This document shows positions 27,911 to 50,762 of a stretch of DNA of 64,000 nt, in pieces. Source of the DNA: Heterodontus francisci (lineage: Eukaryota); the NCBI RefSeq assembly GCF_036365525.1, contig NW_027140532.1, positions 1-64,000 of the forward strand, read 5' to 3'. Position numbers and translations under genes: made by a program. The first letter of the stretch is position 1, and each line of letters opens with the position of its first letter. Under the pieces are notes generated by a model that saw only the letters and a list, made by a program, of their open reading frames with translations, had not been told where the DNA came from and ran no database searches.

Positions 27911-28029
27911 TAGGAGGCAGCGGTTGAGTGAAGGTGAGCTCGCTGCAGTGGTTGGGTGACTGTGGAAGGTTCGGTCCCTGGCGTTCAATGCCCTAACCTC
28001 AGATGTGTGCCTCTGTTTTTTTTCCGCAG

Positions 28030-28135: not shown

Positions 28136-28745
28136 GTGAGCAAATTTCCACCTTCTGAGCTTAGTTTTCGCTCTTGAGAGCGGTGCTTTTTTTTTTCCCC
28201 TCTCCCCGCTTTGTGGTGTCCCTCAGACTGTGGCAGTGACTCGAGGCTTGGAAAGGTTGGGCAGTGACCCCTCCCTGGGCCTCTAAATGAAGTGTGATCA
28301 CGGGGAGGGGAGATGTAGAGGGACCAGCTGGGCGGTGGGGGACAGACAGGAGGGGGGACCTGCTTCGAGGATCGGCAGTGGGGGAGAGAGAGGAAGAGGA
28401 ACCTGCTGGGAGGGCGGGGAAAGAGGAGGGACCTGCTGGGAGAGACCCTGGAATGGAGGTGAGGAAGGACCTGGGCTGAATGGTGGGAGGGCGTGAGAGG
28501 ACAGACCTGGTGAGGTGCGGGGTGGGCAGCGGGATACGGAGAGCTGGTTTGACGATCCCAGCTTGGGGTCGGGGCAGGGGGCTGTGGGGTGCCCACAGAG
28601 GGAAGAATGGCTTTGGAGCCCCCAAACTAGGGAATGGATCCTGTCTCCTTTATCCCGGTCCAGTGCCCCCACCCTCTCCTCCACCAAGAGCTGTCTGAAT
28701 CTCTCAGCTGGCCCCACCTCACCTCGCCTTTGTGTTGCTTTCCAG

Positions 28746-28903
28746 CTGGCAGAGAGCGCGAGCTGCAGAGTGACCCGATTGGCTGTTGGATCGCGCGGAA
28801 CTTTGCCCTGGCGCACTTTCAGAAGCGCCGGCGGCTGTGGGACGAGTATCAGGTGGCGGAGAGCAAGCGGAGGAAGATGTTCGCAGAGCTGCTGGAGGAC
28901 TGA
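28746..28903 (+). CDS. NOP9: NOP9 exon 10 (stop); total CDS 1791 nt, 596 aa
   Basis: ELQSDPIGCWIARNFALAHFQKRRRLW...KRRKMFAELLED* resembles the human C-terminus (...LNSILED). Confidence 0.96.
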
Positions 28904-28907
28904 TGGA

Positions 28908-29752
28908 GGGGTGGTGGAAAGGCCGAGGGAGGGAGCTCAGCGAGCATTGCCCTCCTGAGTCGGCCCGCTGGAGCCCGTGCCGCCATCTTTGCGCCCTCGA
29001 TAGACCCGACCTGTCGCCACCGGATTTAAACGCGTCGTTCAGAAGAGGCGGAATTTTAATCCCGCCTTCACTCCGCGCGTGGGGGCTCCTTCACGTCACG
29101 TTTCCCAGTGTCAAAGGCAGCAGCAACTGATGAGAGAGAGAGAGAGACAGTCATTTCCTGCCGGTGTCTTCAGACCAATAGAAACCCGGCCTCTCCCCGA
29201 GGGCAGGATCCCGAGGATTTACCAGCAGCCGCCAACCTACGCCGACGTGGCCTGGCGATTAATCTCTAGCTGACCTTGTTCAGACCGCGTCCCCGCTCAC
29301 AGGGCCTGGCCAGTGGACTCAAAGGGGCAGGCCTGGCTAAACGCAGCTCCACCTTCACAGCTAAACATGACCGTGGTGCAGACTTCTCCCGAGCAATGCC
29401 ACTGGAGGTCAGTCTCTAATGCAGCCCCTCCCCAGGATCTGCACTGGAATTAAAGGGGCGGTGCCCTCTCCACATTGACAGTTGAACACGGCACGTGCTG
29501 AAATATCGCAGGATTTGTTCCAGGGTTTTGGTTATAAAATATCACCCAGCTGAGGCCGCGTTCCATCGGGAATGTTTTATTATCTGATCAGAGTGGGTAA
29601 ATTGTACAATAAAGGTTTTCATTGATATACACAGGGAGACAGACCATGATTGGCTAAGCCAAGGTAATGTTGTTTTGATATAAACACCTTGTCACATTTC
29701 TCAGGAACATCCCAACAAACCGCACAGCCAATACAAATACCTTGAAACACAG
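28908..29752 (+). repeat. Left copy of ~0.83 kb inverted duplication (NOP9 3'UTR + truncated SINE end)
   Basis: Reverse complement aligns to 49731-50550. Confidence 0.95.
29608..29613 (+). terminator. NOP9 polyadenylation signal AATAAA (antisense AATAAA at 29576-29581)
   Basis: TGTACAATAAAGG, ~700 nt after the stop, with a UGUA element immediately upstream. Confidence 0.75.
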
Positions 29753-30076
29753 GACTAAATTTTACCAGCCCCTCGATGCTGGGGGTCGCGGCGCTGGGCC
29801 CAATAAAATTGTGTGGGGAGAGGCCTGACTCGACCTGCAACGTCGAGAAGAGCCCACTGCATATTAGCAACGATGGGGGGGGGGGGGATCTGCAGTGCGG
29901 CCGGCCCTACATTTACATATGCAAATTGCACTAAATGAGATGCAAATAAACTTACCTGCAGATGGCAAAGGAGTTCCGAGGTGGGAACCTGGTGGTGGGG
30001 GGGGGGGAGAAGAATAAAATTTTCAGGGCAGGAGGGGTGGGGGAGAGGGGAAAACAATTTATATTGGATGTGGGAA

Positions 30077-30576
30077 TGATGGTGCCCGGTATCCAAAAAC
30101 GCTTCAAGAGTCAGATGTCTTGTACAAACGAGCGATCTTTATTTATGAGCATGCGAGAAGTCCTACTCTCACGAATGATCGTAGGGGTTCTGCCAGTACA
30201 TTGTTCCAGTCGTCTTTTTATACAGCTTTACAGGAGGTTTACGTGATCAACTGTTTCTCAATTACATCATCTCCCGTCTATTGCCTTCCCTGATCTCATC
30301 CCGCCGGCTTAGGCGGAGCAGGCCCGAAAGAGGAGTTGAGGCCTGGGACGGATCAGCCATGATCTTATTAAATGGCGGGGCTGAATGGCCTACTCCTGCT
30401 CCTATTTCCTATGCCTTGGTGATAATATTCACCTCGTCAACCTCTTAATTACCCTATTCATAGGATTCGGGTGTCTCCCTCCTGAGCTCCTTACCTTTTG
30501 ATTAGGTGTTCATATAATTTGTGTATCTAGCAGGCAAGCTTTCTCAAGTTACTGGGACCTAAGTTACGCCACTTCA
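30077..30576 (-). mobile_element. 3' LTR of an endogenous LTR retroelement (small CR1 tail nested at ~30330-30412)
   Basis: On the minus strand: PPT AGGGGCAAAAGGGGGGAC (30577-30594), then TG start, TATAAAA (30216-30222), AATAAA (30138-30143), CA end ~30077. Confidence 0.7.
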
Positions 30577-30689
30577 GTCCCCCCTTTTGCCCCTAGGCTA
30601 CTAGCAAGATGGCCAACTAACGCAAAGTGCTCCTTGCTCCATCGCTGTTGGCCAGACTGGTGGTTAGATTTGCGTAGTTACATTTTCTA

Positions 30690-31460
30690 AATTATGTCTA
30701 ACACCTCAATTTAGGTGCCAGGATACAACATTCAACCATAAGTCCGATAGCAATTAGCAACGGCACCGACACCAGTACATAGGAATCAATTCTAATCCAG
30801 GGGTGAACATCCACCCTAATACCCCAGTCCCAAACCACCTCCCATCATGATACGTCCTCCAGTTCAGCTACCACATCATCTCCCAGTTGCCTGACCTCCT
30901 GTTGGATGCGGTGATACTGCTTCATTGGTTTCTGGGCCACTTCCCTCACCTTCAGTAGATCTTCCACCGGTTTAGAGATTCACATCCCCTCGGGAAGCAG
31001 GTATCTCAACAAGTCCTCCAGGAGATCATCGGTTCTGCTCATCCACTCCCTACGGGGAGGCCGGATGTGAGTTATCGCCAAATGTCCGATTGTCGATGGG
31101 GCCCGGCGGGTGGAAGCAGAAACTCGAGTTGATCACTGGGCGGCGGTGGATGTTACCGTACTGGTACTGAGGCACGCTGGTGGTCACGCAGTATTCCCTT
31201 TCTCCACGATGCGCCACCTGCGTCGGTTCATGGCGGGCATTGGAAATTTCAAGGGTACAGTTTAGGGTGGTATTAAAACCATGCGCGGCTCTCTTCCCTA
31301 TCCCTTTGGGATGTGGACAGACAACAATATTCCCTACACCCAGCCAGCAAGATCCCGATAGGAGGGAATCTCTCTGGGTCCCGTATTGGGTGCAAGGCAG
31401 TACATTGGCCAATTGCTGTCTCCCATGATCCCTGTATTCTGTACCCCGAGAAGGGTTTGG
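30690..31460 (-). pseudogene. Decayed viral envelope/fusion glycoprotein C-terminal half
   Basis: Cys-rich ectodomain (ORF 31050..31412); after a frameshift: heptad YHRIQQEVRQLGDDVVAELEDV, Trp-rich S*WEVVWDWG, TM YVLVSVPLLIAIGLMVECCIL; lies just upstream of PPT/LTR. Confidence 0.7.
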
Positions 31461-34089
31461 ATGCCCCTGCTTCTTTAATGTTTTGCTCGCATGTTGTTTA
31501 AATTCAAATCGAACTTAAAATTCCATTGAAACATTGCTTTGCTCAGTCTGATTTAGAAGTCATCAAGCTCATTGTAGCTGACAGCTGTAATTCATTAATA
31601 AATACCGACTGGCTCGACACAATTATTCTAGCAATTAATTTTTTTAAAAATTAAGAGTTACAATTGAATCAGTGAATCTGGCTGTGCAGTTCAGCCACGA
31701 AGCTAGCCAATGTGTTCATGTACGCTTAATGGAGTCTAACAACCCCTCTCGTTCAGGATAAAGCCTGGCTCGGGTATAAAATTAAAACCCTACCCGGGCC
31801 CGAGTCCTTTCATTTCTTTTCATGCCCGACCCGACCCGAAAATATCGAGCATATTATTGAAACAGAAAAAAAAAAAATTGTGGATTAAGAAGAAAACAAT
31901 ACCACCAGCGAATGGGAATGGGAATTAGTAGTGGAATTGGGAAATGGACATCAGTGGTACTGCTTCAGAGCGTTCCCAAACTCTGCTAGGGTGTCTAAGG
32001 TAGACAAGTCAACAACAAGTGTGAGGATGAGCCACCCACATTACTCTTGCATTAACAGACAGTTCAGGAACCCAGACATGGTGCTGTCGGACAGCACAAC
32101 CAACTTGTCTGTTTTAGATCCTCTGCTACTTTGTCTACAATATTGAGGAAGGAATTATTTGTAGCATTTGTTGCATTCGGGTGTCTTTACAATTTGAGTA
32201 GACACAGAGGGAAATTTCTAGTTTACAAACTTGTGGAAATGACGCAGGAAGACTAGCTGGCCCCATCAAGACTGCCCCACAGCAAGCTAACTGGTCCGTC
32301 ATGGCTAAACACTTCTTCCCTCTCCCTAACTCGCATCTAAATCTACCAGGAGTGACAGAAAACAAAAACCCTGGGCCAATGTGCAGAAAAAAACTCAGTA
32401 ACTGTCCTCGGCATCGCCCTGCTGCCCTGGGAGTTGAAAACCTGTCCAGGAGATTACACGGACCACGCATCACCTATAAAGAGAACTTGCCTTCGATATG
32501 ACGCAATCTTTCTCAGTCAGGAACTGATCGAGCTCCCTCTTGAAGCCGCTGAGAAAGTCAGCACCCACCACACCAGCTAACAATGTATTCCAGAGGCTCT
32601 GCATTCTCTGGGAAAAGAACCACCTAACATCCTGTCTATTCCTACGCGTACGTGGCTTAATATTTTTTTTTAAAGTTAAGCTCAGATTGTTTTCTCTCTC
32701 TAATGTTACTTGTCTGCTGCTGTGAAACAATCTGTTGGAAAGTAATGGGGAAAAGTCTTGCTTTTGAAAATCAACATTACTTCTACAGACATTATAACTT
32801 GTTTGAAATTACTTACATTTGATGGGAAAATATTGCATTAATAATGCTACACTGTTTAATGTCTTCAAAATGGTTTTGACATGAACCGAAGTTTCTCGAG
32901 ATAACCAACTCTCTATTCACTCCCATGGAATAGAACACCAGCCCTTTGGGATCAGAGGAATACTTCATTCAAGGAACACAAGCTATTAGGTTGACTAATA
33001 TAGACTGTAACAGTAAATTACTATGCCAAGGTGTTTTAATTCATTACTGTGGAAGATTTAGAATTTATACATGGATGGCCAGTAGTGATTATTCAAACCC
33101 TCCCCCATATATATGAAAAAAACAGTATACACAATGTCAATTAACGTCTAGAATACATACACTAAATATTGTTTCCACATATTTACATTTTTTAATATTT
33201 GCATTTGAAACACTGCATTATCAAAACTTAGTTAACTTGAGTATAAGTTAGTCTCTCACCCCCTCAGGAATGAGAATTAAGTAAGTTAGATCCTGTGTTT
33301 TAGTTTATCTCATAATTCCTGGTGGACTTTGTCCACAAGACCCATTGATGTGGTCATTGACACTCACTCTCAATCATAATTTGGCAGCTTTCCAGATGTA
33401 CTTCACACAACAGTTTACAACGTGACTTCCTACATAAACAATCCCATCATGGAATTCCCTGGTAGACTAATTTTTTTTTTGTCCTCTTTCAAGATCTAAT
33501 TCTTGAAATTTCTTTTTTAAAGCCAAGACAAATCATCAAGATGCTTACAACCAGGGCGATCCGGGCAGGACACCGCAGTTATTTTTCCCAGTCTGTACTT
33601 GCAATGTTAAAACAAACAAGTTCATAAATTATATTTTAAGCATGTGTTATGTATAAAATGAGACATTAGTGTTCCTTTAGAGGCTAATTTTAACTCGCAT
33701 GACTGTGACACATATCTAGTAAATTTCATATCATTTTGGCAGCCACTATAACTGAAATATAAATCTATCCCTGGATTTCCTTTGGGCAGAGAAGGCAGCC
33801 TCTAATTTGTGTTATTGAATTTCATATTCTAAAGTCATTTTAAATACCATTGCCTTAGAAATGTAATTCACAAAAATTTCCAGACTTAAAACCAGTCTGG
33901 AAAAATAAGACCTGTGTTCACATTTTAAAATGTTTTCTTAAAAATCATAAACAGTGAAAAGCTTGCTTTAAAAATGTCACACTTAAGTTTTAATACGTAA
34001 GATGTATTTATATTGGGGTTTTCACATAAGCGGACAGGACAAGTGGCACCAAGACTGCCAAAGCTAAACAGTACAGTCCAGCCCGACCC

Positions 34090-34980
34090 GAGCTCATCTA
34101 AATACTTCTTAAATGTTGTGATGGTTCCTGCCTCTACCACCCCTTCAGGCAGTGTGTTCCAGATTCCAGACACCCTCTGGGTGAAATTTTTTTTCCTCAA
34201 ATCCCCTCTAAACCTCCTGCCCCTTACCTTAAATCTATGCCCCCTGGTTATTGACCCCTCTGCTAAGGGAAAAAGTTTCTTCCTATCTCACCTATCAATG
34301 CCCCTCATAATTTTGTACACCTCAATCAGGTCCCCCCTCAGCCTTCTCCGCTCTAAGGAAAACAACCCGAGCCTTTTCAGTCTCTCTTCATAGCTGAAAG
34401 CTCCAGCCCAGGCAACATCCTGGTGAATCTCCTCTGCACCCTCTCCAGTGCAATCACATCCTTCCTATAGTGTGGTGACCAGAACTGTACACAGTACTCC
34501 AGCTGTGGCCTAACTAGCGTTTTATACAGCTCCATCATAACCTCCCTGCTCTTATATTCTATGCCTCGACTAATAAAGGCAAGTATCCCATATGCCTTCC
34601 TAACCCCCTTATCTACCTGTGCTGCTGCTTTCAGTGATCTATGGACAAGTACACCAAGGTCCCTCTGACCCTCTGTACTTCCGAGGGTCCTACCATCCAT
34701 TGTATATTCCCTTGCCTTGTTAGTCCTCCCAAAATGTATCACCTCACACTTCTCAGGATTAAATTCCATTTGCCACTGCTCCGTCCATCTTACCAGCCCA
34801 TCTATATCGTCCTGTAATCCAAGGCTTTCCTCCTCACTATTTACGACACCACCAATTTTCGTGTCGTCTGCGAACTTACTGATTCATACCTCCTATATTC
34901 ACGTCTAAATCATTAATGTACATTACAACAGCAAGGGTCCCAGCACCAGATTCCTTGCGGTACACCACTGGTCACAGGCC
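34090..34980 (-). mobile_element. CR1 LINE RT 3' half
   Basis: MEFNPEKCEVIHFGR...[24 protein letters not shown]. Confidence 0.9.
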
Positions 34981-35059
34981 TCACGAATGATTGTAGGGGC
35001 TTTGCCAGTACATTGTTCCAGTCGTCATTTTATACAGTTTTACAGGAGGTTTACTTGAT
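34981..35059 (-). mobile_element. Remnant of a second LTR copy (direct repeat of ~30168-30247)
   Basis: TCACGAATGA(T/C)...GCCAGTACATTGTTCCAGTCGTC...TATACAG...ACAGGAGGTTTAC shared in the same orientation. Confidence 0.7.
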
Positions 35060-36209
35060 AAACAAAGAGCAATCAGCCGAATGACCCAGTTTATCAATTT
35101 TTTTTTTCCCAGTCATGTTAGTTGAGGGATAACTATTGGCCACAGGACACCGGGAGAACTCACCCGATGGGTTTCATGTCCGTCTATCTTTACCGGTGGC
35201 AGGACGTATTGAGAGAGTGGTTAGTAAAGCGTATGGGTTGATGTATTTTTTTTTGTCACCGTCCGCAGAGCAGGGGCTGTACAAATCTGTGGGGGAGAAA
35301 CTGGCTGCTCAGTCTGATCCGTTCCTTCCATGGCAACACGCACCTCCCTGTGCAGTTTGATGGCTCCACGTCCGATCGATTCAGGGTGAAACAGGGTTGT
35401 GTCCTAGCCCCCCCCCCCAACTCGGCTTCTTCTCCATACTCCTGACCTTCGCCTTCCCTGCAGATATAGAGAGAGTCTACATGCACACGAGGTCAGACAG
35501 CAAACTCGATACAATCCCTCAAGGCTGAAAACGAAGACAAAAAAAAAATCACATCCTTTCCCTTAAATACGTCTGTACTATATGTTTATCCAGCTTCCCC
35601 TTTGAATGCCATTCACCCCCAACCATCCTCTATGGTCGCGAGTTCCACATTCTCGCCACACTCTGGGTAAATACGTTTCTCCTGAATCCCCTGTTGGATT
35701 TATCAATGTCTCTCTCATATTTATGGCACATCGTTTCGGACTCGCTGGCGAGTGAAAAGACACCTTCTCTCCGTCTACCCTGTCGAAACCTTTCGTTCTT
35801 TTAAAGAGCTCCATTCTGTCACCCTCCCCATCCTCCCATTTCCAGAAATGCTCAGGGTGAAACTGGGAGACAAAATGAAATGCGCGCAGGAGCCCGTGAA
35901 GTTGCCGCCCGCCTGCCCGCCCACTGATGTTACTCTTCGTGCGTAGAAGGACGGTTAAATGTTTTTAAAAACAAAGTCAAATCAACGGTCCTGGAAGACA
36001 ATTCCACCCCCGCCCCACCCCACTCTCCGGCTGGCGCTACTGAAATGTGATTTAAAGAGTGCATTGTTTACAAATGCACGGGTTTAGAAGAGTGGGACGA
36101 GGGTGTAACCGGGGTAGGTGAGGTCTCAGTGCCACCTGCAGACTGTGCGGGGCAGCGCACTGATTTAAAGCGACACAGGAGACTGCTGACCAGCATCCAG
36201 GGGGATTGG

Positions 36210-37165
36210 ACATACAAATTAGGAGGAGGAGGAGGCCACTCGGCCCCTCGAGCCTGCTATCCCATTCAACAAGATCATGGCTGATCTGATTGTAACCTCA
36301 ACTCCACATTCCCACCTACCCCCGATAACCTTTCACCCACCCCCCTTGCTTATCAAGAATCTATCTACTTCTGCCGTAAAAATATTCAAAGACTCTGCTT
36401 CCGCCGCCTTTTGAGGAAGAGAATTCCAAAGACTCACGACCCTCTGAGAGAAAAAATTTCTCCTCATCTCTGTCTGAAATGGGCGACCCCTTATTTTTAA
36501 ACAGTGACCCCTAGTTCGAGATTCTCCCACAAGGGGGAAACATCCTTTCCACATCCACCCTGTCAAGACCCCTCAAGATCTTATATGTTTCAATCAAGTC
36601 GCCTCTTACTCTTCGAAACTCCAGCGGATACAAGCCTAGCCTGTCCAATCTTTCCTCATAAGACAACCCACCCATTCCAGGTATTAATCTAGTAAACCTT
36701 CTCTGCACTGCCTCCAACACATTTACATCCTTCCTTAAATAAGGAGACCAGTACTGTACACAGTACTCCAGATGTGGTCTCACCAATGCCCTGTATAACT
36801 GAAGCATAACCTCCCTACTTTTTTATTCAATTCCCCTCGCAATAAATGATAACATTCTATTAGCTTTCCTAATTACTTGCTGTACCTGCATACTAACCTT
36901 TTGTGATTCATGCACTAGGACACCCAGATCCCTCTACATCTCAGAGCTCTGCAATCTCTCACCATTTAGATAATATGCTTTTTTATTCTTCCTGTCAAAA
37001 TGGACGTTTTCCCACATTATGCTCCATTTGCCAGGTCTTTGTCCACTCACTTAACCTATCTCTATCCCTTTGTAACCCCCTTATGTCCTCTTCACAACCT
37101 ACTTTCCTACCTATCTTTGTGTCATCAGCAGATTTAGCAACCATACCTTCGGTCCCTTCATCCCG
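36210..37165 (-). mobile_element. CR1 LINE 3' portion (same subfamily as 7527-7985 and 55880-56780)
   Basis: [27 protein letters not shown]...GMGGLSYEERLDRLGLYPLEFRRVRGD. Confidence 0.9.
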
Positions 37166-37930
37166 GTCAGGGTGGGGAGGAGTGATTTGTGGATCTGCGT
37201 TTTAACCAGATTTATTTTTGTTTCAAACGGTCTGACCTTTGGAGCACTCCCTCTGTTTGGGTGAAATGATCGGGGGATGAGGGGGGTTCCTTTGCACAAG
37301 CAACGCTGGGAATTGCAGTCGCACTCTTCCTGCTCTGTTGTAGGCCCCACGCCTGCATTTATATAGCACCTGTCCCGGCCACCAGCCATCCCAAAGCGTT
37401 TTACAGCCAGTGGCATACTTTGTTTTTTTGAAGTGCTGTAATGTCGGAAACGGGGCTGCCAACTTGTGCACAGCAAGCTCCCACAAACAGCACCGCGATA
37501 ATGAGCTAGGGAACCTGTTTCTGTCATGATGGTTGAAGGATATATATCAGCCGTGGGACAAACCAGGGAGCACTCCCCCCCCACTTCTCTTTGTCATCGC
37601 ACCTTGGGATCTCTTGCGTCCACCCGCGAGGGCAGACGGGGGCCCCTTGGTTTAACGTCTTGTCCGAAAGATGGCGCCTGCGACAGCGGGCAGCGGTTCC
37701 TCGGTACCGGGATCGTCAGTCCTGGTTCCTCGGTACCAGGATCGTCAGTCCTGGTTTGTTGCCCTCAAGTCCTGGAATGAGATTTGAATGCAGAACCCCG
37801 TGACTCAGAGATACGAGACACAGCCTCATCTAATCAGCTAATCGGCGTGTGGAGGGAGGGGGAAGGGGACACTGGTCTGATGACGTTTATCCCCTGTAAT
37901 CTCGGCCCAGACTACTCAGAGGATTTTACT

Positions 37931-38076
37931 TGGACTTTGCACCCCCTTGTGACAGGCTCAGAGTTCAGAAACTCTCTCTCTCTCGTTCTGCCTGCCTTCA
38001 CTCTAACTTGTCCGCCGTGATTTAATCAACAAATTCCTACCTCATCCAGAGACGACACCGCCGGGGTCAAAGTCTG
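37931..38076. promoter_or_regulatory. Candidate HNF4/DR1 sites upstream of the CIDEB ATG
   Basis: TGGACTTTGCACC (37931-37943; rc GGTGCAAAGTCCA) and GGGTCAAAGTCTG (38064-38076). Confidence 0.45.
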
Positions 38077-38209
38077 GGGACGGGGCAGCGGTCGGGGGTT
38101 GTTGCGGGGGGGGGCACACACAACATCCGAAAGCACCGTCGAGGATCTCTAAAGGCACCAGGGCACGTCCCGTCAGCAGAATCGAGTGGATCAGCGGAGA
38201 CGAGTCCAC

Positions 38210-38265
38210 ATGGAGTATTCGAAAGCCCGGGGCTATGTGTCCTCTTCAGCCTCCTCACTGATCAG
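38210..38265 (+). CDS. CIDEB: CIDEB coding exon 1 (MEYSKARGYVSSSASSLIR)
   Basis: acATGG start; MEY...LIR resembles human MEYLSALNPSDLLR; phase-2 donor matches the next exon. Confidence 0.85.
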
Positions 38266-39167
38266 GTCAGACTGTCGTCTTTTAACTGCCTTCGAGGGAT
38301 CAGTCTTTCGGATGAGACGTCAGACCCCGGGGATCCAGTCCGGCCTCCCAGGCCGATGTGAACGATCCCTCGGGGGGAGAGTCCGTCCCGGCGTCCCGGG
38401 GGGGGGGGGGGGCGGGGGCACGATATTTTGTCCCTGAACCCGCCGTCACTTTTAACAAAAGAAACACGGTCGGGCCGTTATCCCACCGCTGGTTTGTGGG
38501 ATCTTGCTGCGCGCTGCGTTTCCTGCCTTGCGACGGCGACGACGACTCAAAGACCGTGAAAGTGCCTCGTCGGCTGCCAGGCGCTTTGGCGTGACCTGAG
38601 GTGGTGAAAGGCGCCATGTCAATGCAGCTCTTTTCAGATTTACTGCCTCGAATCCTCTCCCCAGCACAGAAGGAGGCCATTCGGCCCATCGTGTCCGTGC
38701 TGGCTCTCCGCAAGAGCAACCCAGCTAGTCCCACTCCCCCCTCCTCCCCCCCTCCGCCCTTTCCCCGTAGCCCTGCAAATCTTTTTCTCTTCAATGCAGA
38801 TTCAATCGTAACTTTCAGAAGGGAATTGGATGACAAGTTGAAATGAGTAAAAGGGGGGGGGGGGGGGGGAAGCGGGGCAGTGCTGGACGGCTCTTCCAAA
38901 GGGCTGGCACAGGCACGGAGCGGGCCGAATGGCCTCCTCCCGTGTGGGCAGATTGCACGACTCTCAGGTGTGCCCTGTTCTGGGCTGACCTCGGCCAAGC
39001 TGGCAGGCGATGGGTAAGCGTGCCACGGGAGGGAGCAGGAAATGGCGGCCCATACCCCCACACGGTGGCCTCGCTGTCTCAAGGGGGTGGTCTGAGGGGA
39101 CGGGGATGGCGGGAAAAGCAGCTCATGGTCTTATTGTACCGTTCCCCCCCCCCCGTCTCTACCTCAG

Positions 39168-39309
39168 ATCAGTTTCTACAGTGAGCTTGGAGCTCACTCG
39201 GAGACTCTGGACCTCCACACCGCCCCAGAGACCCTTCCGAATCTGCAAGCACGATCGCTCCTCCCGGAAGGGGGTGACGGCCGGGACCCTGGTGGAGCTG
39301 ATCAACAAG
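39168..39309 (+). CDS. CIDEB: CIDEB exon 2 (CIDE-N start)
   Basis: SVSTVSLELTRRLWTSTPPQRPFRICKHDRSSRKGVTAGTLVELINK. Confidence 0.95.
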
Positions 39310-40223
39310 GTAGGTCCGCGGCAGGGGGTGTTAAAGAGTGGTGGGGGGGGGGGGGGGTGCCCAGGGATGGGCATGGGGAGTGGCATACACGGACACATAC
39401 GCACACGTACGTTCCAACCTAGACACGCACACATATAAAGACACACACTGACACCCACATACAGTATCAGGCACTTGCTTGCAGTGTTTGCTGTCACTCA
39501 GTGAGTGACACTCTTGACTGAGCTTCCACAGCCCTCTGGGTTTAGGATAGGTGTCCCGGACAATATTTATTCCTCAATCAACCTCACCAAAAAAAAACTG
39601 CTGTGGTCATTATCACGTTGCTGTTGGTGGGATCTTGCTGTGCGCAAATTGACTGCCGCGCTTCCTCCAACGGTGACTGCACTTCAGAAGTACTTCAGTG
39701 GCGGTAAAGCTCTTTGAGACGTCTGCTGGTCTTGGAAGGCGCTATATCAATGCAGTTCTTTCTTTAAAGACAGCCCCTCCGACATCCAGTACTGGACGGG
39801 CAGAAATCGCCTCCAATCAAATATTGGGACGACGGAAGCCATTGTTTTCGGCCCCTGCTCATAACTCCCTTCCCCTAGTTACAGACTCCATCCCTCTCCC
39901 TGGCAACAATCCCGGATTAAGCCAGTCTGTTCGCGACCTCGGGGTCACATTTGACCCCGGGTTGAGCTTCCGACCTCATATCCGCACCCCCCCCGCCCTC
40001 CCCCACCCCAGTCTCAGCTCATCTGCTGCTGAAACCCTCATTCACTCATTAGTACAGTTACACACACACTATCACCCAAACGTGTCAACACGTACCTGCA
40101 ATAACACACATGTACATTGACACACGCGCAACACCGCACACGCCTGTCAGAGCTGGGTGCGATCTGATTGCTGTTTTTTTTTTCCTTCTTCTCTCTCTCC
40201 CACTCCGATGCCCCTCCCGACAG

Positions 40224-40373
40224 GCTCTCGACGCTCTCCTCGTCACCGGAGCCATCGGACTCGTCCTGGAGGAGGATGGGACTGCCGTGGACAGCGAAGA
40301 GTTCTTTGAACACCTGGATGACGACACCACGTTCATGGTTCTGCAGAAAGGCCAGCGGTGGTACCCGCCCAAG
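40224..40373 (+). CDS. CIDEB: CIDEB exon 3
   Basis: LVLEEDGTAVDSEEFFEHLDDDTTFMVLQKGQRW (CIDE-N signature). Confidence 0.96.
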
Positions 40374-41203
40374 GTCCGTCAGTTTGGAACCGCTTCTTCC
40401 CTTATTTATTGACCTTTTTTTTTTGTCCTCGCGGGATGTGGGCGTCACTGTTGCCCTTGACAACTGAGCGGCTTGCCGGGTCAGAGGGCAGTTAAGAGTC
40501 AGCCGCATTGCAGTGGGTCTGCAGTCGCACGTAGGCCAGACCGGGTAAAGAACGGCAGATTTCCTTCCCGAAAGGACATTGGTGAACCGGACGGGTTTTT
40601 ACGACAATCAATGATAGTTTCACAGCATGCACTCTCAATGTCAGGCGTTTAATCAATTGAAGTGAAACTCCATGGGGTTTGAACCCGTATCACCACAGCT
40701 TCTGGATTGATAGTCCAGGGGTGTTACCACTCCCTGGTCTACCAGTGAGCCGAAGATTGACAGCATAGGCAGGGAGTCTGAGACCCCCAAACCAGAGGCC
40801 CAAACAAACTGTCTTCATCAGAGCAGAAAAATCCCTCAGTCCAGCTCTTCGGTTGCTCATTCACCGTCCATTTCAGTGACAAACAGCCTCAGCTAACCTC
40901 AGTTCCCAGGTTCAGGGTCACGGTCAAGGGTGAAGCAGGATGTCGGCCCACCGAGACTTCCCTTTGGTTCGAGCAGTGACGGGCGCGGAAATGGAAGAGG
41001 TTTTGTTTTTTTTCCCATCCGTCTCCGTCCCTGCCAATCGGGAAAGCAGGTCAGGGGCAAGGGGGGAGGTGCAAAAAAAGGTACTGGACAAGTGCCCCCG
41101 CAAAGCTCAAAATCAGCCTGTATCATGCAATTACAGCAAATGAGCAGAGGGGCTGCAGCCCTGGGAACAGTGCAGAGGGAGCTTTACTCTGGATCTAACC
41201 CCG

Positions 41204-44200
41204 TTTTTTTTTCTTTTTTCTTTTTTCTGTTTTTTTTTTTGTTTGTTTTTTCACAAGGTGGCCTTTATTCCTCAGGCCCCCTTTATGTACATATTTACAG
41301 TTTTAAAATAACTTTATTAAAACCAGATAAATAAACAAAAAAAACTCAAATTAAAATGCCATTCTCGGCGTCGACGATGCACTCCAGTCCCTGCGCTGCC
41401 CACCGGTCGCGGAAGGCCTCAAGCGTTCCGGCGGACACCGCATGCTCCTTCTCCAGGGACACCCGGGCGCGAACGTAACCGCGGAAGAGGGGCAGGCAAT
41501 CGGGGAGGACGGAACCCCCGACGGCCCGCAACCTGGACCTGTGAATTGCCACCTTGGCCAGGCCCAGGAGCAGACCGACGAGGAGATCCTCCTCCCGGCC
41601 CAAGCCCCTCCGCACCAGGTGCCCAAAGATCAGGAGCATGGGACTGAAGTGCAGCCAGAATTTGAGGAGCAGCCCCTTCAGATACTCAAAGAGGGGCTGC
41701 AACCTCGCACACTCCGTATAAACGTGGAACACGGACTCGTCCAGGCCGCAGAAAGTACAGGCGGCCTGGGAGTCCGTGAACCTACTTAAAAGTCTATTGC
41801 ACGGGACTGCTCTGTGCAGCACCCTCCACCCCAGGTCCCCGATGTAAAGGGGGAAGACTCCCGCGTAAAGAGACCTCCATCGGGGTTTCCTCTCGCCGCC
41901 AGATGGCAACGCGGACCGCCAGGGCATGTCCGGCCGGCTGACGAAGGCGAGGAAGTGGAGAGTGTGCAGGAGCAGCCCGTACAGGAAACCCCTCCGCGCC
42001 GATTGGAATGGATCGCCCCGCACTCCCGAGCCCCCTCGCCACCCGCAGTGAGGGGCGTCCCGGGGGTTTCGGCTACTCCTCCGCCCGCCGGACCGTCCCC
42101 GGAGTCGGCCGCCCGGACAGCCGAGGCGCTCTCCTCCGCCGGCGGGGGAGCGCCCTGACTGGAGGCGACCATGTTCCAGACTCGGAATAGATCCCGGTAA
42201 AAGACAGGCAACTCCCTCAGAGAGGCGCGGCTAACGGACTCCACCGGGAGCTGCGTGTCGTCTTGAAGGCAATGACACTGGCAGAAAAAATACGTCGCCA
42301 GCGCACACCATCTGGGAGGACGCTCGACGTACAAGTATCTCTGCAGGGTCCGAAGGCGGAGAGTCGCAGCCTGGGTGCGGAAGCACACCAGCGACTGACC
42401 GCCCTCCTCGATCGGGAGACTCAGGACTGCGGCAGAGACCCAGTGTTTCCTCTTGCCCCAGAGGAAATCGACGAGTTTCTTCTGGATCTTGGTGGCAAAT
42501 ACAGGGGGCGGGGCCAAAGTGACCAACCGGTACCACAACATGGAGGCCACCAGTTGGTTTATGACCAACGCTCGGCCCCTGTAGGAAAGCACTCGGAGCA
42601 GTCCTGTCCAGCGCCCCAGCCGAGCGGTGACTTTCACCTCCAACTCCTGCCAGTTTGCCGGCCAGGCTTCCTCAGCGGGGCTAAGGTGGACTCCCAGATA
42701 GAGGAGGTGCGTGGTGCTCCACGCAAAAGGTGTCATCTCCTCCGGCAGGGAGTCCACCCGCCACTGACCAACCAGGAGTCCAGAACATTTCTCCCAATTG
42801 ATCCTCGCGGAGGACGCGGCAGAAAAGGTCTGCTGGCAGTCGCACATCCTCCGCAAGTCAACGGGATCTGTGATTGCGAGGAGCACGTCGTCGGCGTAAG
42901 CCGAGAGGACGACCCGCATGGCCGGCTCGCGCAGAGCCAATCCCGTCAACCTCCTGCGAAGCAGGCACAGGAAGGGCTCCACACAGATGGTATACAATTG
43001 GCCGGACATGGGGCACCCCTGACGCACTCCTCTCCCAAATCGAAGGGGCGCCGTCAAGGACCCGTTAACTTTGACTAGACACTCTGCGGCGGCGTATAAA
43101 AGTCGGACCCGGGCCACAAAATGCGGCCCGAGTCCGAAAGCGCGCAGAGTCCCGAAAAGGTAATCGTGATCCACCCTGTCGAACGCCTTCTCCTGATCGA
43201 GGGAGAGAAAGGTGACCGACTGACCAGTCCTCTGGGAAAGATGGATCAGGTCCCGGACCAGGTGGATGTTGTCCTGGATGGACCGGCCCGGGACCGTGTA
43301 GGATTGGTCGGGGTGGATCATGTGGGCCAGCACGGAGCCCAGGCGGGGAGACATAGCCCGGGCAAAGATCTTATAATCTGTGCTGAGGAGGGAGACCGGA
43401 CCAGTTTTTAAGCAGGCGGAGATCGCCCCTCTTCGGCAGCAGGACGACGACCGCCCTGCGCCACGAGAGGGGCATCTCCCCGGTCGCCAGGCTTTCCCCC
43501 AGGACCCGCGCGTTATCGTCTCCCAGGACGTCCCATAATGCCCTGAGGAACTCCACGGTCAACCCATCCAGCCCTGGGGATTTGTCCCTTGAGAGCTGGT
43601 GGAGGGCGCCGGTCAGCTCCGCCAACGTGAGCGGAGCCTCCAATCCTTCGGCGCCCTCCGGGGAGACCTGCGTCAGGTCCTCCCACAAAACTCTGCGCGC
43701 ATCCTCGCTGGACGGATCCGGAGAGAACAACGCACTGTAATAAGTACGGACCAGGAGGCCCATTCCCTCCGGATCCGTGATGGAGGATCCGTCGTCGGCC
43801 AGCAGCTCAACGAGCTGCTTACGGACCCCCCGCCATTTTTCCAGCGAGTAGAAGAAGGGTGAGGCGCGGTCCAAATCTTCCAGGATCTGGATCCGCGACC
43901 TCACGTGCGCGCCTCGGGACCCTATGAGCTGCAGGTCCCTCAGCGCGCCCTTCTTCTCTTTGTACGCCTGCCACAGGGCCGGGTCAGCGACGGCATGACC
44001 GAGGCGGGACTCCAAGTCGAGCACCTCTCTCTCAAGGCGCCCGATCTCGGCTTCCCACCTCTTGGTCGACCCCTTCGCGTACTCCTGACAGAAGACGCGG
44101 ATGTGAGTCTTGCCCACATCCCACCATAGCCTCAAGGAGGGGAAGCCCCCCCGCTTCCTTCTCCAGTCGGCCCAGAATCGACAGAACGAGTCCCGAAATC

Positions 44201-45722
44201 GCTCGTCCTCAGCAGCCGGTTGTTAAAGTGCCAGTACGCGGACCCCGCCCGCGTGCGGAGCGGAGTGAACTTCGCCCACACCAGGCGGTGGTCCGAGCAC
44301 AGCACCAGCCGCATGGAGGCCGCCGAGACGCGGGAGACTTACACCTGCGAAATGTAGAGGCGGTCGATTCGCGACCCCCCTCCTCCAGACCTCCACGTGA
44401 AGGCACTGGAGTCGGGATGGAGATTCCGCCAGACGTCCACCAAGTTAAGGGAGCTGATCAGTCCCCTCAACTTCTCCACTGACGCTTGGCCGTGCTGGGG
44501 ACCAGAGCGATCCCCCACCTCGAGGGTGCAGTTAAAATCCCCCCCGAGGATGATGCACTCGCCGCTATCGATGGAGCTCAAGAGAGCGGACACTTCTTCA
44601 AAGAAGCGCGCTTGCAACGCGCCGGGCCTGGGCGCGTACACGTTCACAAAGTGGAGCGGCACGCTACCCAGGCGAACGGCGAGGTGGAGCAAGCGGCCCG
44701 GCACTAGCTCCTTGACCCCCAAGATCTCCGGCTGAAAAGTCGGGGCCAACAAGATAGCCACCCCACTAGAAATAGGGGTGAGGTGACTCATGTAGACCCC
44801 ACCCTGCCACTCCAGGAGCCAGGTGGCTTTGTCTCCCGGAACGGTGTGGGTTTCCTGCAGAAAGCTCACTGCGTATCTCCCTTCCCTAAGGACTGAGAGA
44901 TTGTGAAATCTGCGGTGAGACAACCTCGGCCATTGCCTTTACACAGGCCTCTATAGACATATTGGGGTGGGGATAGCTCTTTACCCCATGGCTTGAAGTA
45001 ATTAATTTAAAAAGTGACGGGGTCTCACGGGTGGCCACAGAGGCTACAGCCGCATAGGTATGAGAAGGCCCCGCCACTGGTGATGATGGGCTTGCCATGG
45101 CTCAAGAGCCAAACCCACCCCCAATTTGCAGGTAAGCAAACAAACAAACAAAGAAACCAACTAGTAGGTTTGGGGAGAGGCTGAGGGTATACAAGAAATG
45201 GGAAAGACAGGCTGCTAGCGATGACTTTGCTTTTTTTCCTCTTAAAGGGTGGTACTCAGAGCACTGTAACACTTCTGGTCTTCCGGTCTTCTGGTTGTGG
45301 GAGGGGTCTTCACCTGGGTCAGCCGAAAGCTGCCCAGGCTCTAGTTCGATCCTTATGTCTCTATTAGCCAGGCAGCTTCAGCTGACTCAGGCTGGGCAAT
45401 TGGGGTGGGGAGGGAGCTTCCCTGCAACTTTAGTGCAACTGCACAGCTCCCTACAGAATTGTACAGCCCCCACCCCTTGTTCTTCTGGCCTCTTTCACCT
45501 CCCACAACAGTCCAAATGAAATGAAAGTTTGGTGCTCGACACCCACCTCGAAATACAGCCTTTTTCAAAGTCTTTCCTCCTCTGCAGCAAAAGTTGTTGA
45601 AAGGTTTTTTGCAGTTCCCTCCTCAGCTCTCCCTCTCCAGCAGCACCTCCAGCAACCGACTGCAGCACTGTCAGCTGCACCTCTTTGAGGCACTCAGTAT
45701 TCCCAATCAGAGAGGAGCCAAT
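41204..45722 (-). mobile_element. Tx1-clade non-LTR retrotransposon, internally deleted and frameshifted, in CIDEB intron 3
   Basis: ORF1 N-terminus (44886..45098) fused to APE (FLQETH, GGDFNC, SRIDRLY, SDH); RT (LDQEKAFDRVDH, GVRQGCPMSG, SAYADD); C-terminal CTFC...H...C zinc finger; AATAAA (41264-41269) and poly(A) tail (41204-41251). Confidence 0.9.
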
Positions 45723-45953
45723 CCCCGTGCTATACCTGTCCTGGGAGTGTTTGATGTGGACAGTGTAGAGGGAGCTTTACTCTGTATCTAACCCCCCGTC
45801 TTTTTTTTGTTTTTTTTTCTGTACCTGTCCTGGGAGTGTTTGATGGAGACAGTGTAGAGGGAGCTTTATTCTGCATCTAACTCCATTCTGTACCTGTCCT
45901 GGGAGTGTTTGATGGGGACAGTGTAGAGGGAGCTTTACTCTGTATCTAACCCA
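45723..45953 (+). repeat. 69-bp repeat (CTAACCCCGTGCTGTACCTGTCCTGGGAGTGTTTGATGGGGACAGTGTAGAGGGAGCTTTACTCTGTAT), ~3 units; more units at 41160-41203, 48478-48550 and 55738-55864(-)
   Basis: Direct reading of the repeated units. Confidence 0.9.
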
Positions 45954-45980
45954 TAATCGGGTGCTGACTTTGTATTACAG

Positions 45981-46168
45981 AGGGGAATGGTTTCGTACTC
46001 ACTGACCCAGAAACCTAAGAACACAAAAGACATCGCCCGAATCACCTTCGACATCTACAAGCTCAACCCAAAGGACCTTTTTGGCTCCCTCAACATCCGG
46101 GCCACCTTCTACGGCCTGTACTCCATGACCTTTGACATCAAGTGTCTTGGTCCAAAGAAGGTCATCAG
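45981..46168 (+). CDS. CIDEB: CIDEB exon 4 (CIDE-C)
   Basis: KDIARITFDIYKLNPKDLFGSLNIRATFYGLYSMTFDIKCLGPKKVIR; the LFGSLN/GPKKV motifs favour CIDEB over CIDEA/CIDEC. Confidence 0.96.
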
Positions 46169-46299
46169 GTAAAATGGCGGGATGGAAGCCAAGTCACTCT
46201 CTGTGTGGGCGGGAGAAGGGAGGGCGGAGGCCTGCAGAGAATGACCCATCCATCAGTGTCCCAAAGCCCTACATGTGCAGCCAGGTTCGTTCAGTCACA

Positions 46300-46985
46300 T
46301 AGGGTCATACGAAATAGGAGCGGGAGTAGGCCATTCGGCCCCTCGAGCCTGTTCCCTCATTCAATAAGATCATGGCTGATATGATTGTGGCCTCAACTGT
46401 ACTTTCCTTCCTGCCCCCCATAACCCTTTACTCCCCTATAGATCAAAAATCTGTCTAGCTCAGCCTTGAATCTATTCAATGACCCAGCCTCCACTGATCG
46501 CTGGGGAAGAGAATTCCAATGGTTAATGACCCTCTGAGAGAAGAAATTCCTCCTCATCTCCGTCTGAAATGGGTGACCCCTTATTCTGAAACTGTGACCC
46601 CTAGTTCGAGATTCCCTCACGAGGGGAAACGTCCTCTCAGCATCTACCCAGTCAAGCCCCCTCAGAATCTTATACATTTCGATAAGATCAACCCCTCATT
46701 CTTCTAAACTCCAATGAATACAGGCTCAATTTGCTCAACCCTTCCTCATAAGACAACCCTTTCATCCCAGGAATCGGCCTAGTCAACCTTCTCTGAACTG
46801 CTTCCAATGCAAGTACGTCCCTCCTTAAATAAGGAGAGCAAATTTGTACGCAGTCCTCTCGGTGTGGTCTCACCAACACCCTGTACAGTTGTAGCAAGAC
46901 TTCCCTACTTTTATACTTCAACCCCCTTACAATAAAGGCCAGCTTCCATTTGTCTTCCTAATTACTTGCTGTACCTGTATGCCTG
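46300..46985 (-). mobile_element. CR1 LINE 3' fragment
   Basis: YKILRGLDWVDAERTFPLVRESRTRGHSFRIRG. Confidence 0.88.
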
Positions 46986-48585
46986 ATTGTATTATGATTT
47001 TCTGAATGTCCTGCCACTACCTGTTCAATAATGTATTCTAATATTTTCCCAACAACAGATGTTAGGCTAACTGGCCTATGGTTTCCTGTGTTCTGTTTCC
47101 TTTCTTGAGTAGAGGTGTTACATTTAAAGTTTTCTAATCTTCTGGGACCTTTCCAGAATCTAGGGAATCTTGGAACATTAAAACCAATGCATCCACTTCT
47201 TTTAAGACCTGAGGATGTAGGCCATCTGGTCCAGGGGACTTGTCAGTATTTAGTCCCATTAGTTTTTTTTCCTCTTTAGCACTGAAACAGGCCCTTCAGC
47301 CCATCGAGTCCGTGCCAACCAACAATCACCCATTTATACTAATCCTACATTTAATCCCATATTCCCTACCACATCCCCACCATTCTCCTACCACCTACCT
47401 ACACTAGGGGCAATTTACAATGGCCAATTTACCTATCAACCTGCAAGTCTTTGGCTGCGGGAGGAAACCGGAGCACCCGGCAGAAACCCACACGGTCACA
47501 GGGAGAACTTGCAAACTCCGTACAGGCAGTACCCAGAACTGAACCCGGGTCGCTGGAGCTGTGAGGCTGCAGTGCTAACCACTACGCCGCCCACTGTTTT
47601 GCTTGTACTGTTTCTCCAGTGATAATGATTGTTTTAAGTTCCTTCCTCCCTTTGGTCTCTTGGTTTCCTACTAGTCTTGGGATGCTTTGTGTGTCTTCTG
47701 CTGTGAAGATGGATACAAAATACGTGTCACCATCACTCTGTAAGCACGCCGATGTACACAGCAAGATCCCACAAGCGACAGTGAGGTGAAATGGCAACTC
47801 AATCTGATTTTTGGTAATGTTGGTTTGCGGGATAAATATTGGGCGCAGGACACCAGGGAGAACTCCCTTGCCCTTCTTTAGATAGTGGCGGTGGGATCTT
47901 TTACGTCCAACCTTGGCTTGAACGTCTCATTTCAAAGACGGCACCTCCGGCAGCCCAGCCCTCCCTGCACGTTATTTGTAAGCACAGCGACTAATGAAGG
48001 GACTTTACTCACGGGCAGCAGCAGCAGAGGAAAGTGGCTGAGGCCTTTGGTCAGAAAAGGAGCAACGGACACCAACAGGCCTGAGGCCTACAATCATGGG
48101 CGGCAACAAAACCGAGCAGGCCCCGAGGACCAAACAAGCAGTGCTCATCGGAACAGCAAAATCCCTCAATCCGGCTGTTCCATCGCTCATTTAGGAATCA
48201 CTGCTTGTTTCAGTGTCAAACAACCTCAGCCAACTTCAATTCCCAAGTTTAGGCCACAGTCAACCCAGCCCACAGGCTCGCCGAGGCCTCTGTTTGGGTT
48301 CAGCAGCGACCAACGCAGAAACAGAAGCTGTTTTCCTTCCATCCTCGTCCCTCCCAGTTGGCGAGATCTGGCAAAGGGCAACAAGAGTTGCAAAAGAAAA
48401 GATACCTGACAGAGCCCCACGCAGCTCAAAATCAGCCTGTATCGTGTAGTTACGGTAGATGAGCAGAAAGGCCATTGCCCTGGGAGTGTTTGATGGGGAC
48501 AGTGTGGAGGGAGCTTTACTCTGTATTTAACCCCGTGCTGCACCTGTCCTTGGATCTAACTCGACCTGTGTTTTTATTGTTGTAG

Positions 48586-48706
48586 GGAGTTGCTCCGTGT
48601 GACCTCTTCACTGTTGTATGGGATTGGCCAGATCCTCGTCACTGCTGCATCCTTTACACGTCGTCTAGTGGAAGGGAACGACAATATCGCAGAGTGTTAC
48701 GACTGA
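48586..48706 (+). CDS. CIDEB: CIDEB exon 5 (stop); total CDS 657 nt, 218 aa
   Basis: ELLRVTSSLLYGIGQILVTAASFTRRLVEGNDNIAECYD*; tgtag acceptor in phase. Confidence 0.94.
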
Positions 48707-48719
48707 CCCATCTGTTTTT

Positions 48720-48720
48720 A

Positions 48721-48774
<54 letters not shown>

Positions 48775-48945
48775 AGGTGCAGAGACACACAGACAGACAC
48801 AGGCACACAGACGCAGGAACACAGTGACACACACACACACCCATACACGTGCACACACACATATGTACACACATTGAGACACACACATAGACTCGCCTCA
48901 CGAGTATGCGCACACACAAACACAGTCAGACACACACAAACAGTG
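48720..48945. repeat. (CA)n-rich microsatellite in CIDEB 3'UTR
   Basis: Direct reading. Confidence 0.9.
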
Positions 48946-49069
48946 GATCACTGTCATTGATCAGACATTTGCCACTATTAAATCCGACCCTCATCTTGAA
49001 CCTTCCTGTGTGACTCTCCCTTTTTATCCTGGGATTTTAAACAGATCAGCCACCCTTGTCACCAGCTCC

Positions 49070-49075
49070 AATAAA
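49070..49075 (+). terminator. Candidate CIDEB poly(A) signal (others at 49271-49276 and 49902-49907)
   Basis: AATAAA hexamers downstream of the CIDEB stop. Confidence 0.45.
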
Positions 49076-49730
49076 CCAGCATCAGGGGAGGTGCAGAGGG
49101 CGGAGAATTATTTCTCATTGATTGCTAACTGCAGCAGACAGCGTGCCTGTCCACTCATTCCCCCCTCCCACTCCCGGGAGGCCCTCGCTTGGCCTCATTG
49201 GGAACGCTCGCGGATCAGGGCCCTGGGTGCCCTCACTTCCATTCCCATCCAACTGGAGATCTTCCCTCTGAATAAATTACAAGCTCTTGCTTTCCCATTC
49301 CCTTCGAGGTTACGAGCTCGGAATTCCCAGCCAGGGAGTGTCCCGATATACGTGCCCTAAACACCGTGGGGGTCTGCCAGTCTCACCTTCGAGTCAGTGA
49401 CTCGGGCTCCCCATAATGCCGGGAGGAGACTCCCAGTGCCACCGCCGACTGAGTGCCGCACTGTCGGAGGTGCCGTCTTTCGGGTGGGACGTTGAAACCA
49501 AGCCCCCCCCACCGCCCCACACCATCTGCCCTCTCGGGTGGGTGCGAATGATCCCAAAGTCGCTATTTGGATACAAAAGCAGGGGTGAAGTCCTCTCCTG
49601 GTACCTGGGGGCCCAACATCTATCCCTCAACTCAACATCACTAAAACAAAAAAAAAACGGATTAACAGCTCATTGTGGGATCTTGCTGTGCGGAACATGG
49701 CTGCCACATTGGCCTACGGAGCGACAGTGG

Positions 49731-50550
49731 CTGTGCTTCAAGGTATTTGTATTGGATGTGCAGTTTGTTGGGATGTCCCTGAGAAATGTGACAAGGTGTT
49801 TATATCAATACAAGATTACCTTGGCTTAGCCAATCATGGCCTGTCTCCCTGTGTATATCAATGAAAACCTTTATTGTACAATTTACCCACTCTGATCAGA
49901 TAATAAAACATTCCCGATGGAACGCGGCCTCAGCTGGGTGATATTTTATAACCAAAACCCTGGAACAAATCCTGCGATATTTCAGCACGTGCCGTGTTAA
50001 ACTGTCAATGTGGAGAGGGTACCGCCCCTTTAATTCCAGTGCAGATCCTGGGGAGGGGCTGCATTGGAGACTGACCTCCAGTGGCATTGCTCGGGAGTAG
50101 TCTGCACCACAGTCATGTTTAGCTGTGAAGATGGAGCTGCGTTTAGCCAGGCCTGCGCCTTTGAGTCCACTGGCCAGGCCCTGTGAGCGGGGACGCGGTC
50201 TGAACAAGGTCAGCTAGAGATTAATCACCAGGCCACGTCGGCGTATGTTGGCGGCTGCTGGTAAATCCTCGGCATCCTGCCCTCGGGGAGAGGCCGGGTT
50301 TCTATTGGTCAGAAGAAACCGGCAGGAAATGACTGGCTCTCTCTCTCTCATCAGTTGCTGTTGCCTTTGACACGAACGACACTCGATGTGCAGAGTTAAG
50401 GCAGGATTTAAATTCCATCTCTTCCTAACGACGTGTTTCAAATCCGACGGCGACAGGTAGAGGGTGCGAAGATGGCGACGCAGGCTCCTGCGGGCCGACT
50501 CAGGAGGACGATGCTCGCTGAGCTCCCTCTCCCGACCTTTCCACCACCCC
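49731..50550 (-). repeat. Right (inverted) copy of NOP9 3'UTR, lacking NOP9 coding sequence
   Basis: Reverse complement of 28908-29752; homology ends ~5 nt short of the NOP9 stop codon. Confidence 0.95.
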
Positions 50551-50553
50551 GTC

Positions 50554-50762
50554 TTACTCCTTAAGTTACATTTCAACTTGGGTTATGTTATCCCCTGAAT
50601 TACATATCAATCTGGATTTAAGTTGCTCCTTACAATACGTTTAACTTTGGTTGCAATTAATCCTTAAGTTATGTTTCAACTTTGGTTGAAGTTACTCCTT
50701 ATGTTACGTTTCGACTTGGGTTTGTGGCACTTTTAGATATTTCAGTTTGGGATTAAGTTACG
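50554..50762. repeat. Degenerate AT-rich ~34-bp tandem repeat (~6 units)
   Basis: TTACTCCTTAAGTTACATTTCAACTTGGGTT-like units. Confidence 0.65.

Follow-up and report, generated by a model that had tools for sequence, protein, structure and literature searches.

A probable inversion in the horn shark with duplication of the 3′ end common to NOP9 and CIDEB

The window analysed here, 64,000 nucleotides of the horn shark Heterodontus francisci (positions 1 to 64,000 of contig NW_027140532.1, assembly GCF_036365525.1), holds the genes NOP9 and CIDEB, each followed by one of two inverted copies of the same 845-bp segment, an arrangement that we think is probably the footprint of an inversion. Pfam was searched with 289 open reading frames (ORFs) from the window, taken stop to stop at a length of at least 70 amino acids with tandem arrays left out. 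NOP9 (PF22493) occupies 13497–28903 on the plus strand, and its 10 coding exons match two H. francisci proteins, P0127 and P0128, and end in a TGA stop codon at 28901–28903. CIDEB (PF02017, the CIDE-N domain) lies downstream at 38210–48706, with five exons (38210–38265, 39168–39309, 40224–40373, 45981–46168 and 48586–48706) joined by GT-AG introns. Its spliced protein is identical to the H. francisci CIDEB-like protein P0001, to which exon 4 on its own matches at 100% identity. The exon models place both genes on the plus strand, so that NOP9 and CIDEB are co-oriented in the horn shark window, as an earlier note on this DNA had stated.

The duplicated segment begins 4 bp past the NOP9 stop codon. 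Self-BLAST of the window aligns 28908–29752 on the plus strand with 50550–49731 in inverted orientation over 846 columns at 90.8% identity (E=0), and local alignment reproduces the ends of the pair; the two copies differ at 51 sites and by 4 indel events. The left copy (28908–29752, plus) comprises the predicted NOP9 3′ untranslated region (UTR), a downstream region and the tail of a short interspersed nuclear element (SINE), and the right copy (49731–50550, minus) comprises the predicted CIDEB 3′ end and a downstream region. NOP9 coding sequence is absent from the right copy. The earlier note had recognised the two intervals as inverted copies and had remarked that the right one stops short of the NOP9 stop codon, and the alignments bear out both statements.

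For its size alone the inverted pair is unremarkable, since a pair of long interspersed nuclear element (LINE) fragments in the same window, 36210–37102 and 56779–55884, spans 904 bp at 92% identity. That pair, similar in length and identity, arose from repeats alone, and the copy number of the segment is that of a 64-kb window and not of the genome; both points lend something to the idea of the segment as an unrecognised interspersed repeat that inserted twice. We consider this idea very improbable. The segment is present in two copies in the window, its non-SINE part (28908–29655) yielding no third copy within the 64 kb in a word-7 search, microsatellite matches aside, and one of its ends lies inside an older SINE. 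A terminal inverted repeat was sought at the segment and none was found (best score 14), nor was there a target-site duplication or an A-tail at either copy. Rfam gave zero matches at the gathering threshold over the whole window and one chance-level match (E 0.37) in 28850–29850. A transposable element, whether a miniature inverted-repeat transposable element, a solo long terminal repeat (LTR) or a retrocopy, was likewise rejected as the identity of the segment, its hallmarks having been sought at both copies with none present.

The inner edges of the two copies differ. With a profile made from 11 further SINE copies of the window, nhmmer reports a decayed, near-full-length shark SINE at 49393–49826 (minus strand in the profile's reading direction; E 4e-50). 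This SINE is a single colinear match running from 49826 to 49393, covering positions 11–469 of the 523-position model and crossing the inner edge of the duplication at 49731, with 16 bits of the score contributed from within the duplication (162.7 vs 146.3). The claim that the right copy runs into a SINE is upheld by this match across 49731; the description of that SINE as intact is not, given that it is 29.7% diverged from the profile consensus. The family is repetitive within the window and possibly of the Deu type, a label that goes by resemblance. SacSINE1 has been described in sharks (PMC5499810).

The SINE tail that the left copy has within the duplication (29657–29752, plus strand) is recognised by its similarity to seven SINE ends. 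The last 96 bp of the copy score 156 against these ends, compared with 115 ± 9 for dinucleotide shuffles, and exceed 500 of 500 shuffles. Past 29752 the sequence is unrelated, and the profile search of the window found no remainder of the SINE at the left junction, in agreement with the cut at ~29752 described earlier. A fragment at 35064–35165 was tried as the continuation of the left SINE and rejected, as it scores 70 against the right-hand SINE and 44–74 against other copies. The left copy retains the flank that holds the NOP9 stop codon and the right copy retains the SINE continuation, so that each keeps one old flank. Flipping 29753–49730 yields NOP9, its UTR, a whole SINE and CIDEB tail to tail, which is the layout that the earlier note had reconstructed.

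Two further features lie at the junctions. The sequence at 29753–30110 begins exactly at the left inner junction and is single copy in the window. It may resemble the end of a GC-rich shark repeat; if it were the end of a DNA transposon, transposase cutting could have produced the left break. At the right outer junction, a degenerate 35-bp array of about 5–6 units with about 69% matches (50554–50761) abuts a truncated SINE at 50762–51009.

The duplicated segment carries an AATAAA hexamer on each strand, the two facing one another 32 bp apart (29608 on the plus strand and 29581 on the minus strand). The plus-strand hexamer (29608–29613), the predicted NOP9 polyadenylation (poly(A)) signal, is the first AATAAA past the NOP9 stop codon, has an upstream UGUA and a downstream GU/U-rich element, and received the top score among the four that were scored. 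The minus-strand hexamer of the left copy (29576–29581) is the predicted CIDEB signal in an ancestral tail-to-tail layout. In the right copy a plus-strand hexamer at 49902–49907, with upstream UGUA motifs, is the predicted distal poly(A) signal of CIDEB. It is the sole one with an upstream UGUA among four scored hexamers on the CIDEB side, where neither ATTAAA variants nor the hexamer at 51501 entered the scoring; an upstream UGUA is found at 16 of the 59 hexamers in the window. If the predicted NOP9 and CIDEB hexamers are the ones used, the overlap between the two transcripts would have been about 80 nt. A facing hexamer pair appeared in 1 of 1000 shuffles of the segment.

The right copy had been called an orphan, a description that is probably wrong because the copy holds a predicted CIDEB-sense poly(A) signal (hexamer 49902) facing that of NOP9, and because conservation is far higher in its core than towards its outer end. 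Indeed, the divergence between the two copies is strongly layered. The outer layer (28908–29110) has 30 mismatches in 179 positions (16.8%) and 3 indel events, with 9 of 24 CpGs kept in both copies, whereas the core (29111–29642) has 14 mismatches in 530 (2.6%) and keeps 20 of 23 CpGs in both; the 110 bp on the SINE side hold 7 differences. Outer layer and core differ at p=7e-10 for all sites, p=4e-5 for non-CpG sites and p=8e-4 for CpG retention, and the change point in divergence was matched by 0 of 400 permutations. Five control pairs of repeats from the window gave change-point counts of 8–148 of 150. Within the core, a 158-bp tract that holds the facing hexamers (29485–29642) is identical in both copies, a run matched by 5 of 20,000 permutations of the whole alignment and by 873 of 20,000 within its inner part.

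Gene conversion between the repeats would be the simplest addition that accounts for the homogeneity of the core, and selection on some element is an alternative whose pattern would match. Selection on the poly(A) signals is insufficient by itself, because most of the core lies past the predicted CIDEB cleavage site in the right copy. At a rough rate of 1.0–1.1 × 10^-3 per site per million years (PMC5499810), the layers correspond to about 56–95, 30–33 and 12–13 million years, and they would be older still at the far lower pedigree rate of 7 × 10^-10 per generation (PMC10587355). The event looks old and not like a fresh mutation, and the layered divergence suggests an old event followed by gene conversion or selection.

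We favor, with a confidence somewhat above even, an inversion in which the 3′ end common to NOP9 and CIDEB was duplicated, with one copy kept by each gene. In the ancestor, the two genes would have lain tail to tail and shared 845 bp made up of the NOP9 3′ UTR, the two facing poly(A) signals and the SINE tail. A single inversion of about 20 kb (29753–49730), with offset breaks just past the NOP9 stop codon and inside the SINE, would then have turned a block that, judged from the junctions and from the mammalian orientation, consists of a repeat-rich 8.5 kb followed by CIDEB and the rest of the SINE. Filling in and rejoining of the breaks would have placed an inverted copy at each end of the block, the left copy preserving the NOP9 3′ end and the right copy that of CIDEB, and the inverted allele would have been tolerable because each gene retained its own 3′ end. 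Gene conversion and/or selection on the 3′-end signals may afterwards have held the middle of the copies near-identical while their edges drifted. We infer the ancestral shark orientation, the single-step staggered break, the employment of the hexamers and the conversion.

The orientation of the genes in other vertebrates bears on this reconstruction. Human NOP9 and CIDEB are, we assume, adjacent and convergent on 14q12. In the mouse, Nop9 runs antisense to the Cideb 3′ UTR and overlaps it (10.1101/2025.04.01.646492), and in the horse CIDEB/NOP9 are listed among overlapping pairs on different strands (PMC6678446). In the lizard Phrynocephalus, NOP9 and CIDEB have consecutive locus tags and contigs of equal size. 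The inversion with a duplicated breakpoint that the earlier note had proposed thus gains from the asymmetry of the junctions and from the opposite-strand overlap in mouse and horse; it gains nothing at the second junction, which is unmatched, and its staggered break leaves the same traces as a duplication followed by recombination.

Several observations weigh against the inversion or against the details of its reconstruction. The ancestral orientation would be drawn from distant mammals (mouse and horse) and not from a shark outgroup, and the linkage of NOP9 to CIDEB is apparently not universal: in Gastrophryne and Microcaecilia, both amphibians, NOP9 and CIDEB sit on contigs that differ in size, and in some amphibians the linkage may be broken. 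At the other ancestral junction (block end 29753 against flank 50551) no shared or interrupted element is seen; 29753–38200 and 50551–57200 have repeat-family similarity only, and a second breakpoint duplication was sought and none was found. Duplication is present at one breakpoint only, though Ranz et al. also describe such an outcome (PMC1885836). The SINE tail of the left copy, taken alone, is not reported by nhmmer. In the CIDEB 3′ region two AATAAA hexamers come earlier (49070 and 49271), and CIDEB may terminate ahead of the duplicated copy. The window has 4 further pairs of facing hexamers, so that the 1-in-1000 shuffle figure overstates their rarity, and one control pair has an identical run of 110 bp (31/3000). 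One-sided CpG decay in the right copy had also been proposed; the example quoted for it is real, and the CpG polarity over the whole segment is 12 left-only and 7 right-only (p=0.36; 11:4 and p=0.12 on strict transitions), which is not significant. Of the 6 differences in the SINE tail, 5 have the family state in the right copy and a derived one in the left, a 5:1 polarity that is not significant either (p=0.22). The retained states of the right copy are expected if that part lies inside the CIDEB UTR and beyond the end of NOP9, and two of the derived states in the left copy raise the GU content of the predicted NOP9 downstream element.

The same SINE states, together with the uninterrupted SINE of the right copy, would suit a history with no inversion at all, in which the genes were co-oriented ancestrally in sharks and a reversed copy of a native CIDEB 3′ region was pasted behind the NOP9 stop codon, replacing the NOP9 UTR; the orientation comparison, moreover, draws on vertebrates other than sharks. 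It requires that the pasted sequence supplied a NOP9-sense poly(A) site by chance and landed 4 bp past the stop codon, the earlier NOP9 UTR left no trace, and co-orientation clashes with what mouse and horse show, a convergent overlap. We rate it as improbable.

Duplication may instead have come first, with a reversed copy placed near the 5′ side of CIDEB and homologous recombination between the copies flipping the block afterwards. The end product would be the same, and both models are described as leaving the same pattern (PMC2817401). The near-identical core is the trace expected of recombination, and repeats of comparable size and identity (from 654 bp and above 90%) drive human inversions through non-allelic homologous recombination (NAHR). 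This route needs two events, and the copy that it requires is no retrocopy, as it extends about 120 bp beyond the poly(A) site and has neither an A-tail nor a target-site duplication. We regard it as unlikely, and the least unlikely of the histories set beside an inversion that itself made the duplication.

The inverted LINE pair noted above offers another route. The LINE 3′ fragments at 36210–37102 and 55884–56779 are a young inverted pair and a further possible recombination substrate; being 92% identical and likewise bracketing CIDEB, they could have inverted about 37.1–55.9 kb after a direct duplication, turning CIDEB and the second copy together. Their flanks and 5′ truncation points differ, there are no swapped halves, their divergence is uniform, and a third LINE copy is 87–90% identical. 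With more steps needed as well, this history is very unlikely.

An assembly artefact was also weighed, the more so as the genes recur in the assembly. The protein set of H. francisci contains a pair of NOP9-like proteins: P0127, which matches that of the window exactly, is on a 736,360-bp contig, and P0128, which differs from it by 5 amino acids, is on a contig of 59,489,666 bp. The identical CIDEB protein is counted on two contigs, among them the 59.5-Mb contig. The window is probably part of an unplaced scaffold on which a region of a chromosome recurs, and the doubling of the NOP9/CIDEB set would reflect either a haplotype left uncollapsed or a recent segmental duplication. The recurrence of NOP9 and CIDEB from the 736-kb scaffold on the 59.5-Mb contig is what an uncollapsed haplotig would give, and it lends some weight to an artefact on the unplaced scaffold. 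The divergence of the copies argues against it, as had been pointed out before: a misjoin does not create 51 differing sites and 4 indel events arranged in layers. As the repeats are also far shorter than long reads, we give an artefact very little credence, and the inversion remains our preferred reading.

The remaining features of the window are side observations. Within the repeat-rich part of the block, an 84-bp direct repeat (30168–30251 and 34980–35063, 92% identity) lies around broken minus-strand ORFs at 30118–31514. An LTR element with an envelope-like gene, suggested by eye for ORFs at 30450–31514, is unsupported, with no Pfam match and no Atlas match above 0.81. An AT-rich island at 31500–34100 (37% GC in 32001–34000, against 51% overall) is bounded by short CCCGA-type motifs, and the ORFs tested within it gave no Pfam match. 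CIDEB intron 3 holds a GC-rich LINE on the minus strand (41346–44938) with endonuclease, reverse transcriptase and zinc-binding domains in several frames. Large tandem arrays lie at 17398–18718, 52644–54823, 60219–61863 and 63214–64000; of these, the 33-bp array at 52.6–54.8 kb has apparently expanded from a unit of a SINE, the two halves of which flank it (52531–52678 and 54792–55136).

Upstream of NOP9, three ubiquitin-family exons (PF00240) lie at 2157–4521 on the plus strand. They are presumably NEDD8, which would fit the human 14q12 neighborhood. Downstream of CIDEB, a CCDC102A-like gene at 57282–60177 matches H. francisci P0121 without a difference. For its relative in Scyliorhinus canicula, P0122, a fusion to an FH2 formin domain is predicted, which suggests a shark FHOD/CCDC102 paralogue in this region. 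In Mustelus, CIDEB is 5′-partial on a 29,633-bp contig and a contig of 38,887 bp carries the CCDC102A-like gene; Mustelus NOP9 is not among the 11 matches listed.

No published account of this shark locus was found in the literature covered, which lies outside most subscription journals; the paper that treats the H. francisci genome is on sex chromosomes, and the figure legend of a zebrafish BLT paper states no orientation. If confirmed, the locus would be a compact vertebrate inversion through a tail-to-tail overlap in which neither gene was harmed and the shared end was duplicated, and the mammalian NOP9/CIDEB overlap would date to the jawed-vertebrate ancestor. The breakpoint could also be of use in phylogeny, marking Heterodontus or a wider clade. 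Only with both orientations segregating, or with the antisense complementarity shown to be maintained, would the locus go beyond an example.

The first of these possibilities recalls systems that toggle. Human NAHR inversions use repeats more than 90% identical and from 654 bp in length, and most of them recur (10.1101/501981, PMC6748972, PMC3961182); FLNA/EMD on Xq28 flips recurrently between inverted repeats (PMC2817401, PMC8327919). As in FLNA/EMD and the InvFEST set, a gene-containing spacer of tens of kb lies between inverted repeats in the horn shark, and the pair falls just inside the human range of size and identity (>90%, about 650 bp) at 845 bp and 90.8%. Unlike typical NAHR inversions, with a median of 5.9 kb, the shark repeat is at the small end (845 bp, with a 530-bp core at 97%), and whereas the toggling systems are recurrent, the horn shark locus has been observed in one orientation. 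Re-inversion by the repeats is plausible on this analogy. A CIDEB switch that is still flipping would go further: both repeats carry both 3′-end signals, so that either orientation would be viable, conversion or selection would have kept the 80-nt sense-antisense complementarity for tens of millions of years, and the two sets in the assembly would possibly be two orientations. We hold such a switch to be rather improbable; if true, it would be a natural test of whether the tail-to-tail overlap of mammals and sharks matters through RNA pairing or through shared DNA signals.

Inversions that duplicate their own breakpoints are the closer parallel to the inversion that we favor. The chimpanzee pericentric inversion near SLCO1B3 and the inversions of human Y strata 4/5 are thought to have created flanking duplications (PMC2817401). 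These events are much larger than that in the horn shark, with duplications of tens of kb, and are not described as preserving a shared 3′ end. In Drosophila, inverted duplications accompany 17 of 29 inversions (Ranz et al. 2007, PMC1885836). All five inversions there that split antisense-overlapping pairs carry them, and in two of the five both 3′ UTRs are preserved; example pairs are CG9578-CG9579, CG31142-CG5289 and CG31286-CG1315 (PMC1885836). As in those cases, sequence (non-repetitive there, and in two copies in the 64-kb window here) would have been duplicated in inverted orientation at the breakpoint, a 3′-overlapping pair would have been parted, and each gene would retain 3′ UTR sequence (here predicted) through the duplication. 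The Drosophila cases had outgroups and breakpoint resequencing, whereas the horn shark case is read from one window. The horn shark differs from them in being a vertebrate, in the small 20-kb block and in the layered homogenization of the copies. The phenomenon is known from Drosophila, and the shark locus is best read as a new vertebrate example of it and not as a new phenomenon.

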